A stretch of 34,489 nucleotides of DNA from positions 1-34,489 of the IMG/VR virus record IMGVR_UViG_2671180921_000023; one strand, given 5' to 3'. This stretch comes from a virus (taxonomy: Duplodnaviria; Heunggongvirae; Uroviricota; Caudoviricetes). Below the pieces are notes generated by a model, which made no database searches, was not told the DNA's origin, and was given only the letters and a program-made list of their open reading frames with translations. Position numbers and translations under genes: made by a program. Shown here piece after piece: positions 3,743 through 33,946 of the stretch; the stretch's first letter is position 1; each line of letters starts with the position of its first letter.

Positions 3743-4258
3743 ATGGCTGTACCACGTTACGTTCGCCAGTTCACGCTGTTTGTGAACGGCAAAAACAAAA
3801 TCGGCACGGTGACAGGCGTCACTCTGCCTAAACTGACCCGAAAAACCGAAGCCTATCGCGGTGGCGGGATGCTGGGTGCGGTGCATATTGACCTCGGACT
3901 GGATGATGGCGCACTGGATGCCTCGTTCACCACCGGTGGGGTTGAAAAAGAGCTGCTCCAGGAATACGCCACTGAAATTAACGAAGTGGCGCTGCGCTTT
4001 GTGGGTGAGCTGTTCACCGATGGTGAGGAAAGTCAGCTCCTTGAGGTGGAAATGCGCGGGCGTATCACGGAAATCGACCGTGGCGAAACCAAACAGGGCG
4101 ACACCACACAGTACACCTTCGCCGTCAAAAACACCTACTACAAGGAGTCGGTGGATGACAGCGATGTGACAGAAATCGACCTGCTGAACTTCATCTACAA
4201 AAAAGACGGCCAGAACGTCTTTGGTGACCGCGTGAGTTCGGCGCTCGGTCTGAACTGA
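3743..4258 (+). CDS. FII: Tail tube protein gpFII
   Basis: 171 aa; ATG immediately after the FI stop, GGAGG RBS; P2 FII-like. Confidence 0.9.
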   Translation: MAVPRYVRQFTLFVNGKNKIGTVTGVTLPKLTRKTEAYRGGGMLGAVHIDLGLDDGALDASFTTGGVEKELLQEYATEINEVALRFVGELFTDGEESQLLEVEMRGRITEIDRGETKQGDTTQYTFAVKNTYYKESVDDSDVTEIDLLNFIYKKDGQNVFGDRVSSALGLN

Positions 4259-25827: not shown

Positions 25828-28600
25828 TTCCGCTGGTCAGGCCACCCCGCAGCAGGTCTGCTTTGCGGCTGGCGCGTTCAGTGGTTTCACTGATTCTCTG
25901 TGCGTGCTCTGCGTCGCGGATGGCGCGCAGCATGTCAGAAAGCACGGTAACGGGTGTTTTCATGGTGTTCTGGTCCTGCTGAAGTGTGGATGCCAGGCGT
26001 GCGGCGGCTTCAGGGTCTGATGCCCCCAGCTGTGCCAGATAGCTGGCGACCGGGTTATGGCGGATCTCCGTGCTGCTTACGCCATGATTACGGCTCAGGC
26101 GCTGCCAGAGCTGCGTGATTCGGCTGTCCGGGCGGGTATCCGGTTTGCGTACAATTTCAAATCCCTGCGGTGCAATGATGCTGCCGTCAACGTACAGACT
26201 GCCGCCCCGTAACAGGTGCTGCATCTGTTGTTCACCGATATGCAGGCCGAGAGATTCAGCAGACTCCCGCCATTCTTTAGCGAGTAATTCGTGGTTATCA
26301 GGCAAAGGCCGCTGCTGTTTGCGGCTCTGTGTCCAGCTCTGCATTTCATCACTGCTGTTTTTTGCCTGTTTGTCACGAAGCGAACGCATCAGCGCCCGGC
26401 GTTCGTGCCGTTTCAGTGAGCGCATCCATTCGTTCACTTCAACGCCGTCAGGGAGCTGCGGCCACGGTGCTGGCCGTTCTTCCGGCTGTTCTGTCCCGTT
26501 GTTGTCCGTTTCCTGTACACGGGGACAGTTATTGCCACGAGTCCAAGGGGCGGCAGGGCCGCCCTGAAGGTCAAAACCATTTTCGCGGGAGCTGTCTTCC
26601 GCTTCCGGTTTACGTCTTACCAGCTTCCAGTTATCCGGGTGCGTGCACACACGGGAGGATTCCCCGATGAGTGGTGACCAGATCCCGTAAATCTGTACAC
26701 TCTGTTCGCCGTAATCGTTCAGCTCATCTGCGAGGTCGTAGGCGGTGCGAATCAGGTAGTCTTTACGTGGAACAAGTACTCCGCCCTGTTTCTCAATGTA
26801 GGTGGCAAAACATCCGGCATCAGCGGCAGCAAGAACCGCATCCATTGCGTCATCCTTCAGCCGTTGTGGGCCTTCCGGGTTGCGTGCCATCTGGCTGGCA
26901 AGGCGGCGCAGTTCACGCCATACCTGACGGGAGGGGATACCAAAGAACTGGAACTGGCGGACCCGGTGAAGGCGCGCCCAGCCGATGGCGCGCTCCACGC
27001 TCTCGGCCATTGATTTTCCGGTTTCGTGGTCAACGCGTGGCTTGCCCGTTTTCGGGTCGATGCCATCCACGGCGCGGCTATCCAGGTTCTTTCCGATGTA
27101 GGTGGCGATGTAGCTGGTTGGCGTGCCTTTCGAACCGTCGACGTACTCTGCCTTAAAGCGCGGAGTAATATCATTGCCCAGCTCGTGGCGGTCTTCCTGA
27201 ATGGCAATATCGCAGACGTGGGACACGATGGTTTCAATCTCGTCCGGATGTGCAAAGACCATCATATGCCAGTGCACCGTGCCGTCATGGTGAGGCTCCA
27301 CCGTGCGGATGCCATACCAGCGCAGACCGTCGCGGTTCAGTTTTTTGCGGACCGCCGCAAAAAACGTGTTAACCAGGTAATCGCTGGAGTCGCGCATGGT
27401 GGCTCCGTTCCATTTGGGGTTCGGATGACCGTTCTCCGTTGTTGCGTGGTATTTTGACGGGCAGGTGACAGTCAGAAACACCGCTCTGTCGCCACGGGCT
27501 TCGGCCAGAAGTTCCAGCCCCTTCATGGTGGCCATCATTTCTGCCTTACGGTGAACCGGGTTACTTACTCCCGCGTAATACACTGTCTCGAGATCAATCG
27601 TGAACCCGTCTTCATTTTCCAGCATGAAACTTTTCAGGAAATCGCGTGTTTTCTCGCGCTGTGCGCGAAACTCGCTTAACGCGTCCTGGCTCAGATAGGG
27701 TGATGTTTTTCTGGAAACCAGACAGGCGGCGCGGAGTTGTTCTTCTCTCCACTCGCAACGTAACAGCCACAGTTTGCGTTTCCACCATTCCGCACAGGTC
27801 AGGCGAAGGATTGCGCCCGGCAGCAGCTCCGTGTCCGGTTCGTTCCTCCGGTCTTTGTCTGTTGTCAGTGCGTCATAATGTGGAGGCATGGCGTGCAGGT
27901 GTAACGCCATGCGGGCCAGCATCTGATACGCCTTCAGCGTTACATCCATGGTCAGTTCGCCATCAGTAGCGCCAAAGCCATCGCAGAGTTTTTCGAAGGT
28001 GCTGCTGAACATCGCCGCCGTCATGGTGGCCAGCGTCTGTATCTGGTGTTTGTTGAGCTGCGGCAGGTAAAGCAAATCGTCCAGGCGTTCGCGTCCGGCA
28101 AGGGAGCGATAACCCGGTGTCAGCCAGCGGTGATCGGTGCGGTCCAGACGTTCGAATATTTTGCGCAGGGTTCCGCGCGCGTAGCGTTCAGCCTGCCAGC
28201 TCTTTTTGCCTTTCTGGCGATCGGCTTCCTGTTTTTTGCGCAGGAAAGAGAGGTGGCGGCTCAGAGGTTCACGCAGATAAACGGGAAGCACCTTCAGTGT
28301 GGCAAAAGCACGGGCCACCGGGTCTTGTTCTGTTGCCTGACGCTTGCTGATGATGCTTTGTGCCAGCTTTTCACGCTGTCCGGCTTCCTCAAGGGATGCC
28401 ATGAGTTTTTTACCCATGGCGGATTGTGCGAAAAAGGCTTCCTCCTTCGCTTCCTGTTCTTCCTGGGCCTTTTTGTCTGCCTCAAGGTAGTAACGGATGG
28501 CGCGTTGCAGGTCGGTTTCAGTTTCCTGCCTGCACTCCGTAAATCTGGCCGGATCAATGGCTGGCCGCGGTTCATTCCAGCTCCATGCAAACTCACTCAT
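25760..28600 (-). CDS. A: Replication initiation protein gpA (rolling-circle HUH endonuclease)
   Basis: About 946 aa, P2 gpA-like with HUH motif (VHWHMMVF). Start at ATG 28600 overlaps the upstream stop (ATGA coupling). Confidence 0.85.
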   Translation of the reverse strand: MSEFAWSWNEPRPAIDPARFTECRQETETDLQRAIRYYLEADKKAQEEQEAKEEAFFAQSAMGKKLMASLEEAGQREKLAQSIISKRQATEQDPVARAFATLKVLPVYLREPLSRHLSFLRKKQEADRQKGKKSWQAERYARGTLRKIFERLDRTDHRWLTPGYRSLAGRERLDDLLYLPQLNKHQIQTLATMTAAMFSSTFEKLCDGFGATDGELTMDVTLKAYQMLARMALHLHAMPPHYDALTTDKDRRNEPDTELLPGAILRLTCAEWWKRKLWLLRCEWREEQLRAACLVSRKTSPYLSQDALSEFRAQREKTRDFLKSFMLENEDGFTIDLETVYYAGVSNPVHRKAEMMATMKGLELLAEARGDRAVFLTVTCPSKYHATTENGHPNPKWNGATMRDSSDYLVNTFFAAVRKKLNRDGLRWYGIRTVEPHHDGTVHWHMMVFAHPDEIETIVSHVCDIAIQEDRHELGNDITPRFKAEYVDGSKGTPTSYIATYIGKNLDSRAVDGIDPKTGKPRVDHETGKSMAESVERAIGWARLHRVRQFQFFGIPSRQVWRELRRLASQMARNPEGPQRLKDDAMDAVLAAADAGCFATYIEKQGGVLVPRKDYLIRTAYDLADELNDYGEQSVQIYGIWSPLIGESSRVCTHPDNWKLVRRKPEAEDSSRENGFDLQGGPAAPWTRGNNCPRVQETDNNGTEQPEERPAPWPQLPDGVEVNEWMRSLKRHERRALMRSLRDKQAKNSSDEMQSWTQSRKQQRPLPDNHELLAKEWRESAESLGLHIGEQQMQHLLRGGSLYVDGSIIAPQGFEIVRKPDTRPDSRITQLWQRLSRNHGVSSTEIRHNPVASYLAQLGASDPEAAARLASTLQQDQNTMKTPVTVLSDMLRAIRDAEHAQRISETTERASRKADLLRGGLTSGNKKQTETGLTNPVNEQKTRSDI

Positions 28601-29016
28601 GGCTGGTATCCCGTCACGCGCTGCCACTCCTGCGAGAAGAGGGTGGAAAGGCGGTTAAACTCAGCGGTGTATTCACTCAGCGAGGCACACCCGCCAGCAG
28701 TGTGATGCGCCAGCATTGCCGCAAATACGGAGGCCGGGGAGTCGTAATACGCCAGCAGTGATTCGCCGTGTGGTGTCAGGCAGTGCAACGCCAGCCCGTG
28801 TGGTGTCAGGCAGTGCAACGCCAGCCCGTGTGGTGTGAAGTCCACGCGGTAGCAGTCGTCTACTGTGAAATAAAGGGTGTCCGCATTCTCCGGTTTTGTG
28901 GTGCGTGCTCTGTTGTCACGACCGCGGATGTAGAGATCAAATAATCCCTGAAGAACGGGAGCCAGACGGGTGTCCTGTGTGCGCACCCATCTTGTGAAGT
29001 CATGAGCGTCAATCAT
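28597..29016 (-). CDS. Hypothetical early protein (139 aa) with an internal in-frame tandem duplication
   Basis: Protein repeat TPHGLALHCL x2 plus a partial third, encoded by a perfect 30-bp tandem repeat; translationally coupled to A. Confidence 0.5.
   Translation of the reverse strand: MIDAHDFTRWVRTQDTRLAPVLQGLFDLYIRGRDNRARTTKPENADTLYFTVDDCYRVDFTPHGLALHCLTPHGLALHCLTPHGESLLAYYDSPASVFAAMLAHHTAGGCASLSEYTAEFNRLSTLFSQEWQRVTGYQP
28767..28836. repeat. Perfect 30-bp tandem direct repeat (2 full copies plus a 10-bp partial) inside a CDS
   Basis: cgtgtggtgtcaggcagtgcaacgccagcc repeated at 28767-28796 and 28797-28826, then cgtgtggtgt. Confidence 0.9.
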
Positions 29017-29088
29017 GCTGCAATTCTCTTTACTACAGATGTGCGAAGGCCTCCCGCCGCAAGGTGCAGGAAAGGCCCGGAACAGGAA

Positions 29089-29319
29089 TTAATGGAGTTT
29101 GTTTTGCTGCTGGATGAGATCCTGAAGAGACAGGAGGTCTTCCGCCAGATAGCTGAATACAGCGGCGCAGTAGTCGGCTGAAATAGTGCTGTTGAGTCTG
29201 TGCAATGTGTTGGATTGCATGATAAAAGCGATGTGTGCAGCGCGGGTGAGTCTGCGGTTGATTTCAGTCTGGATGTGACGACGCTCCGCGATAGCGCGGT
29301 GCTGTTTGCGGTTTGCCAT
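29089..29319 (-). CDS. Hypothetical early protein (76 aa)
   Basis: Helical-looking basic small ORF; preferred over the overlapping low-complexity 205-aa ORF in another frame. Confidence 0.4.
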   Translation of the reverse strand: MANRKQHRAIAERRHIQTEINRRLTRAAHIAFIMQSNTLHRLNSTISADYCAAVFSYLAEDLLSLQDLIQQQNKLH

Positions 29320-29496
29320 GATGTGGCCTCTTTGGTTGTAAGTTTTGAAAACTCACCATCCAGAGCTGCGAAACTGTGGGTGGCGAGACGTACGAGGTTC
29401 GCAGTACCGGCAACCAAAGAACCCGGCCCGACCGAAGTCGGCCCCGTACGTCCCGCCATAATTCGTGTGCGAAAAAGACGTGGCAATACAGTACGC

Positions 29497-29520
29497 ACAA
29501 AAAAACCGCTGGCGCGGTTG
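29497..29520 (-). terminator. Putative intrinsic terminator/attenuator inside the early operon
   Basis: Minus-strand hairpin aaccgc-gcca-gcggtt followed by 7 T; lies in a 320-bp non-coding gap. Confidence 0.35.
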
Positions 29521-29639
29521 TGTGCTTTGGTTGTCAGCAGGCTGCGAAACCCGGCATCCGTTTTATGAGATGCAGCGGAAATGTAACCTGACTGATTGCG
29601 GCATGGCAAGCGGTTTTTTTGTGTGTACATAGTGGTTAC

Positions 29640-30505: not shown

Positions 30506-30741
30506 GCTCTGGCTTCCTTCAGTAGCTGGTTAAACATGTGGGTTAGTGGGTTGCCACACCCGAACGGCAGCGTGTTCACCTCGTAGCAAAACTCCGATGC
30601 GCGTTCTTTCCTGTTAACGTGACCATCGCTCCAGAGTTGGCGTAGCCCTCTAGTGATAACTTGTTTTGGCATATTCAATGCGGCTGCAATCTCGCTACTG
30701 GTGCATCCCGGATGGGCTGCGATGTAGTCCAGAATGGTCAT
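30502..30741 (-). CDS. Small winged-helix-like DNA-binding protein (79 aa)
   Basis: MTILDYIAAHPGCTSSEIAAALNMPKQVITRGLRQL resembles a wH/HTH recognition module. Confidence 0.45.
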   Translation of the reverse strand: MTILDYIAAHPGCTSSEIAAALNMPKQVITRGLRQLWSDGHVNRKERASEFCYEVNTLPFGCGNPLTHMFNQLLKEARA

Positions 30742-30941
30742 CTGCGTGGCTCCTGTACCTGTCGGATAAGATTCACCCGTGCCACGTTGGTGGCGCAGAA
30801 GTAAGTGCCGTCAGTGAGATAGATGTGATGTGCATCCTTTTCTGAACGGTGTTTGTCGATTGTGGTAATCAGGCGTTCGTCAACTTCGTATTCACGTCCT
30901 CTGGAGGTGAAACGAACGACAGGAAAATGCTTAATTGCCAT
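30738..30941 (-). CDS. Hypothetical early protein (67 aa)
   Basis: Start at ATG 30941 with AGGAGG RBS; the ORF-track start at 30992 is less likely. Confidence 0.45.
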   Translation of the reverse strand: MAIKHFPVVRFTSRGREYEVDERLITTIDKHRSEKDAHHIYLTDGTYFCATNVARVNLIRQVQEPRR

Positions 30942-31027
30942 TACGCCTCCTGGGGGTGTGCGAATACCTCCGCGAATGCGGATTTTTTTCACATTTTCTT
31001 ATTTAAACTGGTGTTTTATTGGCGCTG

Positions 31028-31141
31028 TTATTCGCCAGTGAAAAAACGTTCAATCTTTTTCACGGAATCAATAATTCGCACAATGCCAATGGCGCAGAAC
31101 ACCGAAATAACCAGGACAAGCCAGGATATAAATATACTCAT
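31028..31141 (-). CDS. Putative 37-aa single-pass membrane peptide, translationally coupled to the upstream gene
   Basis: Hand translation: MSIFISWLVLVISVFCAIGIVRIIDSVKKIERFFTGE. ATGA overlap with the stop of the 80-aa gene. Below the ORF-track size cutoff. Confidence 0.35.
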   Translation of the reverse strand: MSIFISWLVLVISVFCAIGIVRIIDSVKKIERFFTGE

Positions 31142-31380
31142 GCGATATTCCCCAGTGTGTACGGCTTAATATAATCCCCGTTTTCTGCGGCGCAGACGAG
31201 TTCGGAAAGTTCGTCGAGTGCATCGAAATCGTCAGCGTAAAAAGCTGCGTCGTACAGACTCCTGATGGCTCTGGTCAATGACTCGCGGGCTGCACGTTCA
31301 GCATGAACCCCTGATGCGCTTAAACGAAAATAAAAACGCTCAAGAGCTTTGTTGATGAGGGTTTTGTATTCTGTACCCAT
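31138..31380 (-). CDS. Hypothetical early protein (80 aa)
   Basis: Acidic helical small ORF in the early operon. Confidence 0.45.
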   Translation of the reverse strand: MGTEYKTLINKALERFYFRLSASGVHAERAARESLTRAIRSLYDAAFYADDFDALDELSELVCAAENGDYIKPYTLGNIA

Positions 31381-31401
31381 CTGGCGTTATCCCGAAAATA
31401 A

Positions 31402-31659
31402 TTAAAGAAGATGCTCGATTGATTTACCGGATTTAATCTGTTCAATCATTTCGTTAATCATGAAGAACGGTGGATAATCATTTGCGACTGCGGCAACCTC
31501 TCTTAATGACTCCAGTCCGTTAATCAGTTGGCGTTTTGCTTTGGCTGGACTTCTTTCTCCGTTAAGCATTTTGAAAGCGCAGTGCGTGACTACTCGATGA
31601 GCAAGACATCGGTAGACCGCCTCCGGTGTTGCTTTTTCGCCTGTTGTTGAGGCTGTCAT
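31402..31659 (-). CDS. Hypothetical early protein (85 aa)
   Basis: Small ORF in the early operon; no recognised domain. Confidence 0.45.
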   Translation of the reverse strand: MTASTTGEKATPEAVYRCLAHRVVTHCAFKMLNGERSPAKAKRQLINGLESLREVAAVANDYPPFFMINEMIEQIKSGKSIEHLL

Positions 31660-31662
31660 TGG

Positions 31663-32013
31663 TCAATGGCTCCACGGGTGCTGAAAACTACGGCCTGCAA
31701 TTAAGCGGTCAACGGTGCGCAGTGCTTCGTATAATGTGAAATCCTGTCCGAACTGATTGTCGCCGTTGCTCAGTGCAAAAATGCGGTTTCCGGTAAACGG
31801 ATTACGTGGGCATTTGTGGACCACGATTCCAGCTTTCTCAATCAGCCAGGCATGTTCGCCGATTTGTTTTACAACGTGACCATCTGGTGTCGCGTGTGTA
31901 TTGCTCAGGCTGTAGCGGATGCTATTGCGCGATGCGCTGGTAGCGAAACGGTTGGTGTGGCGTTTCGTTCCGTTGTGGAAGCGCTGCTGTGAAGAATTGC
32001 GCCGTTCTTTCAT
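31663..32013 (-). CDS. Hypothetical early protein (up to 116 aa; start uncertain)
   Basis: ORF in the early operon directly after the cox-like gene. Confidence 0.4.
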   Translation of the reverse strand: MKERRNSSQQRFHNGTKRHTNRFATSASRNSIRYSLSNTHATPDGHVVKQIGEHAWLIEKAGIVVHKCPRNPFTGNRIFALSNGDNQFGQDFTLYEALRTVDRLIAGRSFQHPWSH

Positions 32014-32050
32014 ATCAAAATACTCCGCCTAAAATGAATTATTGTTTGAG

Positions 32051-32476
32051 TTATGCTGCTTTACCGCTGATATTTCTGTTTCGCCTGCCACTTGTTGGCT
32101 TAAATAAAAACAGACGGTTTTCCCAGTCGTGCCATTCCTGAGGTGCGTTTTCGATGAGTCGATCGCATGCTTCATCCCACGCTTTTCTGTTGATGTAGAG
32201 TTCAGCGTTTCCGCCTGGTTTGAGAGGGTCCGCCATATACACCGCAGGTAGCTTTCCTGCTTTGGCCATGCTTACGATGGCGTCAACGGTCTTTCCGATA
32301 TATATCGCAAATCCTTCTTTTGACAGGAGATGCGAGGGATTTTCTGAAAGTCGAATTTCTTCACGTTCACGTGCTTTGCGTCCTGTTTTTTGATGCTCCC
32401 CTTCTGGCATTTTTGGCTGGTGATCGCATCGTGTTTCGCAAAGTGACTCAGGCGCGTTTTGAGTGCTTTCTTGCAT
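32051..32476 (-). CDS. cox: Cox-like early regulator/excision directionality factor (start uncertain; likely shorter than the 141-aa ORF)
   Basis: First gene of the operon divergent from C; C-terminal part (KEGFAIYIGKTVDAIVSMAKAGKLPAV) resembles the Cox HTH family. Confidence 0.5.
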   Translation of the reverse strand: MQESTQNAPESLCETRCDHQPKMPEGEHQKTGRKAREREEIRLSENPSHLLSKEGFAIYIGKTVDAIVSMAKAGKLPAVYMADPLKPGGNAELYINRKAWDEACDRLIENAPQEWHDWENRLFLFKPTSGRRNRNISGKAA

Positions 32477-32505
32477 CTGATATCCTCCGCCATTGGTGCT
32501 TTCTT

Positions 32506-32533
32506 CTAACTAGCACCATTTAGAACTAGTTAG
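32506..32533. promoter_or_regulatory. Candidate operator in the C/cox divergent promoter region
   Basis: Perfect inverted repeat CTAACTAG-N12-CTAGTTAG, with internal direct repeats of AACTAG. Confidence 0.45.
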
Positions 32534-32584
32534 CGCAATCCATCGTGTGTTAATTGATGCATAAACCAAGTGAGTTAACTTACT

Positions 32585-32884
32585 ATGTCAACTACCGTAG
32601 CTATGAAAATTCGCATCATGCGGAAGTCAGAAATGCTTACGCAAGAAAAAATGGCAGAGATTACTGGGCTTACTCTTGCTGCATTAAGGCAATATGAGCA
32701 AGGACGAAATGAACCCAACCTTGAGTCAACAAAAAAGCTTCTGAAAGCTCCCATGTTCCGTAAGTACCGCGACTGGTTTCTGTTTGATGAAGTTGACCCC
32801 AAGGCCGGGCAGGTTGTGCCGGCTCTCGCACACATTGGGCAAGGCGAAGCGGAATTATCCCGCTCCGGCAAGAAAACTGGTTAA
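32585..32884 (+). CDS. C: P2 C-type immunity repressor
   Basis: 99 aa; IMRKSE ... PALAH ... GQ ... SGKKTG pattern and length match P2 C; position upstream of int. Confidence 0.8.
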   Translation: MSTTVAMKIRIMRKSEMLTQEKMAEITGLTLAALRQYEQGRNEPNLESTKKLLKAPMFRKYRDWFLFDEVDPKAGQVVPALAHIGQGEAELSRSGKKTG

Positions 32885-32950
32885 CGGTTCACCAGGCATT
32901 TTTTTCCCAGAGCTGTGATCAAGATGATGTTTTCATTGGAGGGCTTCCTT

Positions 32951-33946
32951 ATGTCGATTAAGAAGCTCGCTAATGGCAAATTTTGTGTGGACGTGCGGCC
33001 TGCTGGATCGGAAGGAAAGAGATTCAGACGGCGATTTGATACTCGTGGTGAGGCTGTTTTGTATGAGCGTCATGTATTGCAGCATTACCACGACAAAGAC
33101 TGGGTTGATAAGCCAACAGAACGGCGCTCGCTGAGGGAGTTGCTGGATTGTTGGTGGCTATACCACGGGAAAAATCATCCTTACGGTGCGATGGAGCGAG
33201 TGCGTATTTCTGCGGTCATTAGTGATCTTGAAAGTATTAATGTTACACGCAGTGACCAACTTACTCGTAAGAACATAATTAATTATCGCTTATTGCTGCT
33301 TAACCGCGGAATAAAACAATCCACGGTTAATCGTTATTGTGCAATGATGAGTGGTTTCTTCACAAAACTAATTGACGCAGAGGAATATTCTGGGGCTAAT
33401 CCGTTTCATGATGTAAAAAAACTTAATATCAAACAGCCTGAAATGGCTTATTTGTATCATGAAGATATTCCACGATTACTGGAGTTGTTATCTGGTGATG
33501 AATTAAAAGCCGTCTTGTTGTGTCTGGCAACAGGTGGAAGATGGAGTGAGGTTGCAAATATCAAGGGGGAGCATGTTATTAGCGGCAAAGTCATTTTTAT
33601 GGAAACCAAAAATGGGAAGCGTCGCGTTATACCTATATCGTCAGAACTGGAGTGCATGATTAAAACAAAGGCCACTGGTCGTTTAATTTATCCAAGTTAT
33701 GCAGCTGTCAGAGCTGCTATCAGAAAGGTGAGGCCCGATCTTCCTGAAGGGCAGTCGATACATGTTTTACGGCATACCTTTGCCACTCACTTCATGATTA
33801 ATGGTGGGAATATCATCACTTTGCAGAGAATACTTGGACATAGCACTATTCAGCAGACGATGACTTATGCCCATTTTGCACCGGATTATCTACAGGATGC
33901 TGTGCGCTTTAATCCTGTGGCTGAGTTGTCCAGATATTGCCCATAA
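32951..33946 (+). CDS. int: Tyrosine integrase (P2 Int-like)
   Basis: Start at ATG 32951 (MSIKKLANGKF) with GGAGGG RBS; catalytic R ... HVLRHTF ... GHSTIQQTMTYAH signature. Confidence 0.9.
   Translation: MSIKKLANGKFCVDVRPAGSEGKRFRRRFDTRGEAVLYERHVLQHYHDKDWVDKPTERRSLRELLDCWWLYHGKNHPYGAMERVRISAVISDLESINVTRSDQLTRKNIINYRLLLLNRGIKQSTVNRYCAMMSGFFTKLIDAEEYSGANPFHDVKKLNIKQPEMAYLYHEDIPRLLELLSGDELKAVLLCLATGGRWSEVANIKGEHVISGKVIFMETKNGKRRVIPISSELECMIKTKATGRLIYPSYAAVRAAIRKVRPDLPEGQSIHVLRHTFATHFMINGGNIITLQRILGHSTIQQTMTYAHFAPDYLQDAVRFNPVAELSRYCP

Follow-up and report, generated by a model that had tools for sequence, protein, structure and literature searches.

A conserved gene for a predicted 37-residue membrane protein behind DUF4754 in the early operon of P88-type prophages

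The peptide gene and its setting in the early operon

The stretch of DNA analysed here (the window, 34,489 nucleotides) is a nearly entire P2-like prophage of E. coli, of the P88 type (Peduoviridae, Xuanwuvirus). On its minus strand, at 31028..31141, lies an open reading frame of 37 codons, with its ATG at 31141-31139 and its TAA at 31030-31028. Translation of this segment gave MSIFISWLVLVISVFCAIGIVRIIDSVKKIERFFTGE, which matched exactly the 37 residues of an initial annotation that had described a small reading frame starting in an ATGA overlap on the stop codon of an 80-aa gene; we confirmed this arrangement. The overlap (31138..31141, minus strand; tcat on the plus strand) joins the ATG of the peptide gene to the TGA of the gene for an 80-aa DUF4754 protein (31138..31380, minus strand), which matched Pfam PF15946 over its full length (E 8e-49).

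A Shine-Dalgarno-like GGGGA lies at 31149..31153 (minus strand), 7 nt upstream of the peptide start codon and within the last codons of the DUF4754 gene. Its calculated duplex with the anti-Shine-Dalgarno sequence was -5.5 kcal/mol, within the range obtained for the other genes of the same operon (-4.1 to -10.3 kcal/mol), and the corresponding values in five sequence classes of the family were -4.2 to -8.5 kcal/mol. The motif was kept in all five classes, despite differences between the overlapping C-termini of their DUF4754 proteins, and the RNA around the start of the peptide gene showed no masking or unusual structure (folding z -0.59). With the ATGA retained in every relative and the Shine-Dalgarno-like motif located in the 3' end of the DUF4754 gene, the set-up for translational coupling that had been suggested from the sequence was borne out.

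The peptide gene is the fifth gene of the repressor-controlled early operon (Pe-type, cox to gpA). It is preceded, all on the minus strand, by cox (32051-32476; Pfam Phage_Cox), a DUF4761 gene (31663-32013; Pfam DUF4761), a gene for an 85-aa protein (31402-31659) between the DUF4761 and DUF4754 genes, and the DUF4754 gene itself; the next gene after it, also on the minus strand, encodes a 67-aa protein with its ATG at 30941. Past that gene, the operon continues with genes for a MarR-type winged-helix protein, an Ead/Ea22-like protein and a 183-aa HTH protein, and further on with the gpA replication endonuclease gene. The 85-aa protein weakly matched phrog_2549, the PHROG that holds DUF4754 (E 1.6e-4), and may be a diverged tandem paralogue of DUF4754.

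Divergent from this operon, on the plus strand, are a C-type repressor gene (32585-32884) and an integrase gene (32915-33946), whose homologous positions in P88 are occupied by the 'C protein' and the integrase. The early-gene order (cox, DUF4761, DUF4754, peptide and so on to gpA), with the divergent C and int genes, was as in P88 and P2, and the order of the genes upstream of the peptide gene was also shared with E. coli strain 2-1. P2 has the same layout, with Pe between C and cox and an operon that runs from cox to A. Crude consensus scans of 30600-32700, which may miss an atypical promoter, found no promoter-like site on either strand (2.7 were expected in shuffles) and no terminator-like site on the minus strand. 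Because these scans were empty and the layout is that of the P2 Pe operon, we infer by homology with P2 that the peptide gene is internal to a repressor-controlled early transcript. Its earlier placement, as a small membrane-protein gene inside an early operon, thus proved real, the operon being the early lytic operon of a P2-like prophage.

Two structured RNAs were found by Rfam elsewhere in the window: a C4 antisense RNA (29376-29463, minus strand, 85 bits) and an isrK Hfq-binding RNA (29499-29573, minus strand, 65 bits). They lie side by side in an ORF-poor gap (29017-29639) between the gene for the 183-aa HTH protein and a 139-aa gene at 28597-29016. This pair looks like an antirepressor control module, of the P1/P7 c4 type or the Salmonella IsrK type, carried by a P2-like prophage, and a gene for a 'derepression protein' occurs nearby in related prophages.

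Conservation and distribution of the peptide gene

Conservation of the reading frame was examined in 82 related loci, consisting of 80 IMG/VR contigs fetched via DUF4754, E. coli strain 2-1 and phage P88, which together with the window made 83. The ATG start, the ATGA overlap, an open frame and the TAA stop were present in 83/83 loci, the peptide being 37 aa long in 77 of them and 45 aa long in the other six. Among the 35 distinct 114-nt alleles, variable sites were distributed over codon positions 1, 2 and 3 as 11, 4 and 18, and pN/pS was 0.27 in the peptide frame, compared to 1.5 and 1.2 in the other two sense frames. A frame of 37 open codons is expected by chance with a probability of (61/64)^37, or about 0.17, and is not unusual alone; it is the conservation of this one, in the 83 loci, in pN/pS and in dN/dS, and not its openness, that places it above chance.

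Comparison with diverged classes of the family, whose peptides are 41 aa long, gave dN/dS values of 0.08-0.32, with synonymous sites near saturation. The hydrophobicity of the transmembrane segment, the length and eight invariant residues persisted at 51-62% identity, and peptide identity was still 46-56% where that of DUF4754 fell to 30-40%. Among close relatives, in the P88-type class, the peptide was less constrained than DUF4754 (pN/pS 0.23 vs 0.058). The DUF4754 gene stood directly before the peptide gene in every locus examined, including four divergent peptide classes and plasmid-borne copies. These results show that the reading frame is a real protein-coding gene under purifying selection, fixed directly behind DUF4754. 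An antisense reading frame at 30849..31169 (plus strand) also had a low pN/pS, 0.34; we rejected it as a gene, since it contains stops in 65/83 loci and owes the low ratio to geometry, sharing the wobble phase of the peptide frame.

When we looked for interruptions of the frame in close relatives, a test named in the initial annotation, we found two exceptions only, and the gene was not refuted. The first was a -1 slip at codons 33-34 in the six loci with the 45-aa form (L034, L035, L062, L078, L079 and L081), which lie on several different backbones and in which the T-run of CG(T/C)TTTTTC (31040-31045 in the window) is one base shorter. Residues 1-33 are unaffected by the slip, after which 12 new residues stand in place of the usual last four; phages PhiR44_2 and Chuche matched the peptide at residues 1-33 only. 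The shortened run could reflect homopolymer slippage or sequencing error. The second exception, phage record 503458 (NC_049341.1, 125-470), was the only relative with a broken frame, and contained several frameshifts. As its DUF4754 gene is frameshifted too, we read this break as decay or sequence quality and not as evidence against coding; the record may contain indel errors or represent a decaying prophage.

The spacer between the peptide gene and the gene for the 67-aa protein contains a hairpin at 30969-30982, about 45 nt beyond the stop codon of the peptide gene. Its sequence on the coding (minus) strand was TCCGC-N4-GCGGA in 61/83 loci, and the remaining 22 had either TCCGT-ATTA-ACGGA, with a compensatory change from C-G to U-A, or G-U wobble pairing that is possible only on the sense strand, and the hairpin was also kept in the diverged loci of the 41-aa class. 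The terminator scan picked it up in plus-strand orientation, with a T7 run, as a terminator-like site; the folding z of the region was -1.88. A short frame, of about 14 codons in many loci, crosses the hairpin; the window has it joined to the following gene in an 84-aa ORF. The hairpin could have a role in mRNA processing or stability, or could mark a module boundary.

The peptide belongs to a small family. In an all-against-all HMMER search, 1.84 billion representative proteins yielded no more than seven clusters, with E values of 2e-9 to 6e-5 for the representatives of the 37-, 41- and 45-aa clusters; three of the seven were the 41-aa forms, at 51-62% identity. These 41-aa forms occupy the same slot, with an ATGA after an 80-aa DUF4754 gene (loci L083-L088 and L093), in P2-like prophages with differing downstream genes. 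Identity to phage and prophage copies was 75-89% (tblastn E down to 5e-13), the closest named homologue being P88 gp07, a 'membrane protein' (YP_009113050.1) with 89% identity to the window peptide (E 5e-13), in the same slot and with an ATGA after DUF4754. Hypothetical proteins called by PGAP, for example WP_139501117.1, are homologues of the same family and slot in Xuanwuvirus prophages, 37-45 aa in length. The window allele carries V11, F15, V21 and D25, where most alleles of the family have I, A or V, M, and H or N. Judged by its sequence and its position, the window peptide is thus a member of an unnamed, P88 gp07-type family, from which it differs in nothing essential.

Although the gene had been called hidden in the initial annotation, it was unlisted only in the ORF list behind that annotation: P88 gp07 carries its 'membrane protein' label, and PGAP calls the gene as a hypothetical protein. 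The exact window peptide occurs under the name 'MULTISPECIES: hypothetical protein [Escherichia]' on 385 public contigs. For annotation the consequence is small, since existing annotation includes the gene, and the present results leave the accepted biology of P2-like phages unchanged.

The 201-nt locus region was found in 1365/5426 complete E. coli genomes (about 25%); of 40 of these hits, picked at even intervals from the ranked list, 39 had a hypothetical protein called next to DUF4754. The family is otherwise narrow, being found in Escherichia with sporadic copies in Salmonella and Citrobacter. A scan of 185,579 species representatives with the peptide alignment detected two loci only, one in E. 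albertii and one, at 89% identity, in a contig titled Vagococcus sp. WN89Y, a Firmicute (NZ_JBQPOM010000071.1); the likeliest source of the latter copy is enterobacterial contamination of the assembly. The species-representative genomes gave no matches to DUF4754. Searches of Pfam, NCBIfam and PADLOC with the window peptide returned no matches, PHROGs returned weak matches only (best E 0.028), and a PDB sequence search returned nothing at E up to 10. A literature search found no paper mentioning DUF4754 or the peptide string.

Predicted architecture and possible modes of action

The peptide is predicted to form one helix, very hydrophobic over its N-terminal 20-24 residues and followed by an amphipathic, net-basic tail. 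The transmembrane core comprises codons 3-21 (31079..31135, minus strand; IFISWLVLVISVFCAIGIV), with S6, W7, L10, A17 and G19 listed as invariant, and has the best 19-residue Hessa sum of the peptide, -3.28 kcal/mol, at a mean Kyte-Doolittle value of 2.84. This segment was the second most hydrophobic among the 380 window ORFs of at least 30 aa, and a Hessa sum of -1 or below was reached by only 2 of the 207 small window ORFs. The tail comprises codons 22-37 (31031..31078, minus strand; RIIDSVKKIERFFTGE), includes the invariant residues I23, I24 and K28, and is predicted to be cytoplasmic. Its residues 23-35 have a hydrophobic moment of 2.04, compared to 0.94+-0.46 in shuffles, 1.7% of which reached that value. 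The net charge after the transmembrane segment is positive in all classes, the 41-aa forms ending in ERRK, KRHK or KHHK, and on the positive-inside rule an N-out/C-in topology would be expected. AlphaFold modelled one continuous helix over residues 2-35 (pLDDT 93). One transmembrane helix with a charged tail, as the sequence had first been read, was therefore supported by both approaches.

Eight residues (M1, S6, W7, A17, G19, I23, I24 and K28) were invariant in 38 distinct peptides, and conservation was concentrated on one helical face, with a conservation moment of 0.21 vs 0.09+-0.05 in shuffles (reached by 1.2% of them), a result that comes from few independent lineages and has modest statistical support. 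The conserved face, S6-L10-S13-A17-I20-I24-K28-E31, forms a heptad stripe of small residues, as is typical where helices pack tightly.

We have high confidence that the locus contains a gene for a 37-residue protein with this architecture. Considering the explanation in full, we lean towards a single-pass inner-membrane protein that would act as an accessory modulator of the early lytic phase by helix packing. Synthesis of the peptide would be limited to the time after infection or induction and would depend in amount on the translation of DUF4754, and the peptide would insert N-out/C-in in the inner membrane. There it would act as a non-enzymatic modulator, packing its Ser6-Leu10-Ser13-Ala17-Ile20-Ile24-Lys28-Glu31 face against a membrane partner, the likeliest of which would be a host protein of the inner membrane with a part in envelope or division physiology. 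This choice of partner was proposed by analogy with the early host-takeover genes that occupy the same slot in other phages. Taken separately, this mode of action, in which an accessory early-lytic modulator binds a host inner-membrane partner through the conserved face, is tentative; the Ser/Ala face would serve self-oligomerisation or the binding of DUF4754 equally well.

Binding of DUF4754 is the basis of a possible, less probable explanation, in which the peptide is a membrane anchor or small subunit that works with DUF4754: the ATGA overlap would match the amounts of the two proteins, and the cytoplasmic tail would tether the DUF4754 protein to the inner membrane. The strict adjacency of the two genes in every locus, across divergent peptide classes and plasmid-borne copies, and the universal ATGA overlap are consistent with this arrangement, as is DUF4754 itself, which has no other recognisable function and was modelled by AF2 as a small helical hairpin with a floppy C-tail (pLDDT 89). 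Foldseek matches of this model in the PDB all had E > 1 and were generic helical hairpins. However, two junctions further downstream in the operon also overlap by 4 nt, so that such overlaps appear generic here and the ATGA says little about a special partnership between the peptide and DUF4754. The tail of the peptide can, moreover, carry a frameshifted end, and peptide and DUF4754 types appear to be exchangeable, as seen in the pairing at locus L084.

That locus (3762-4126) is a natural recombinant, which combines a P88-type DUF4754 (78% identity to that of the window) with a 41-aa peptide; the same peptide, identical in sequence, occurs at locus L083, where DUF4754 is only 40% identical. 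This places a recombination junction at the ATGA overlap or close to it. Some database entries for 'long' DUF4754 proteins (103-128 aa) had the appearance of fusions between DUF4754 and the peptide; we rejected this interpretation, as they are frameshift read-throughs. They are mostly singletons or small clusters from raw assemblies.

It is unlikely that the peptide is instead a membrane-damaging toxin, similar to type I toxins or to viroporins and holins, whose oligomers, formed through the Ser stripe, would depolarise the inner membrane and shut down the host. A small size, one hydrophobic helix and a polar or charged end are familiar properties of type I toxins. In being shorter than 55 aa, with a single hydrophobic helix and a polar or charged end, the peptide is like Hok, Ldr, TisB, Ibs, ShoB, DinQ and ZorO (toxin properties in part from PMC12648545), and the very hydrophobic helix and charged C-end are as in Hok, TisB, Ldr and small holins, with the polar residues Ser6 and Ser13 on the conserved face. 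The type I toxins, in contrast, are encoded at stand-alone loci that have their own promoter, a structured leader and an antisense sRNA, whereas the peptide gene is internal to an operon and joined to its neighbour by a 4-nt overlap, with no long leader, no promoter of its own or antisense to it, and no sRNA match in Rfam at the locus. Sequence similarity between type I toxins and the peptide was not found, and neither a holin nor a toxin nor a PADLOC profile matched it. The peptide would also be made early, while the phage still needs an energised cell. The initial annotation's description of the peptide as type I toxin-like thus stood for its size and hydrophobicity and failed for its genetic organisation: of the features that define a type I toxin-antitoxin system, we found the small hydrophobic peptide and neither an antisense sRNA with its own promoter nor a stand-alone mRNA with a structured leader.

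A role in superinfection exclusion or anti-defence, in which the peptide would keep the DNA of other phages from crossing the inner membrane, also seems improbable to us. Phages are known to make small exclusion proteins of the inner membrane, and this gene is accessory, lineage-specific and common, as its presence in a quarter of the complete E. coli genomes illustrates. It lies, however, in a C-repressed early operon and not in a lysogenic-conversion cassette like that of P2 old/tin, no promoter-like site was found inside the operon, and PADLOC was negative for the peptide, three relatives and four neighbours. The C-repressed operon and the lack of a match to any defence model make exclusion in a lysogen unlikely, and this suggestion of the initial annotation was not upheld.

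Finally, it is very implausible that the reading frame has no function as a protein, and is conserved for an overlapping DNA or RNA element or translated as a spacer for downstream expression: the frame is short enough to be open by chance and a conserved hairpin lies just downstream, but substitutions fall mostly at third codon positions, pN/pS is low only in this frame and in the wobble-matched antisense frame that is broken in most loci, hydrophobicity, length and the eight residues persist in the most diverged forms where synonymous sites are saturated, and there was no RNA family match or unusual folding.

We therefore return to an accessory early-lytic modulator as our preferred reading of the locus. 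The initial annotation was partly supported, being right in kind, as a small membrane-protein gene in an early operon, and unsupported in its specific analogies. Of the classes of early genes in phages, that of small single-pass membrane proteins is the least understood, and the member described here is common.

Comparison with known systems

Several known families that share a property with the peptide could be set aside. Holins and antiholins were rejected, since the gene is located in the early operon and not in a late lysis cassette, and no holin family in Pfam, PHROGs or NCBIfam matched. TatA and TatE resemble the peptide in that a short N-out transmembrane helix is directly followed by an amphipathic helix, and one relative (P0004) had a faint match to the NCBIfam TatA model (E 0.004, 16.9 bits vs a cut-off of 104). 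Membership was rejected because this match was below the cut-off and came from one relative only, there is no Gly hinge, and AF2 predicted a single straight helix.

With regard to gene position, the closest counterparts are in phages 186 and lambda. The fil and dhr genes of 186 (annotated as inhibitors of cell division and of host DNA replication, respectively) are non-essential, host-directed genes in an analogous slot, and these two genes and lambda kil are small non-essential genes that, like the peptide gene, follow cox or apl in an early lytic operon. The proteins themselves are unlike the peptide: 186 Fil (75 aa) and Dhr (66 aa) lack a hydrophobic segment, with best Hessa sums of +9 and +15. 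We found no small transmembrane ORFs in the early operons of P2 and 186, tblastn with the peptide at E up to 10 matched neither 186 nor lambda, and no Pfam or PHROG match connected the peptide to Kil or Fil. The proposed likeness to Kil consequently had no sequence support, the Fil protein in the analogous slot having no transmembrane segment. As Fil and Dhr are soluble and unrelated to the peptide, the argument from a host-takeover slot is one of position.

The E. coli protein Blr (b4409, 41 aa), which is associated with the divisome, has a similar size and N-out single-pass layout and has the stretch W[IL]VLV[IV]SV in common with the peptide. Its Smith-Waterman score against the peptide was 44, which 0.14% of segment-preserving shuffles reached; scores against other family members were lower, with shuffle fractions of 1-6%, and a profile comparison by hhalign gave a probability of 36.6% over 12 columns only. 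Blr was absent from the matches of the all-database HMMER search, and a control of this resemblance with natural transmembrane segments comprised 10 windows only, too few to be useful. We did not accept homology with Blr on the basis of these mixed shuffle tests and the short profile alignment, and regard the resemblance as a lead only. Contacts of Blr with the divisome were reported from two-hybrid experiments (PMC7648144). As a long shot, the peptide might be a putative phage mimic of divisome-associated peptides like Blr, whose W-LVLVISV helix would dock onto late division proteins and transiently arrest or re-tune septation early in the lytic cycle of P88-type phages. The peptide would in that case be an equivalent, embedded in the membrane, of the soluble Kil and Fil inhibitors, and roughly one in four sequenced E. 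coli strains would carry it.

For the proposed mode of action, Gp11 of staphylococcal phage PhiNM1 is the nearest precedent in function: this small membrane protein, the product of an early gene, binds the membrane-associated host proteins MurG and DivIC and blocks division (PMC11237401). Its host and phage are unrelated to those studied here, and a relationship in sequence would not be expected. As Gp11 led to MurG and DivIC, a conserved 37-residue peptide with a clear interaction face could provide a compact handle on a host membrane target.
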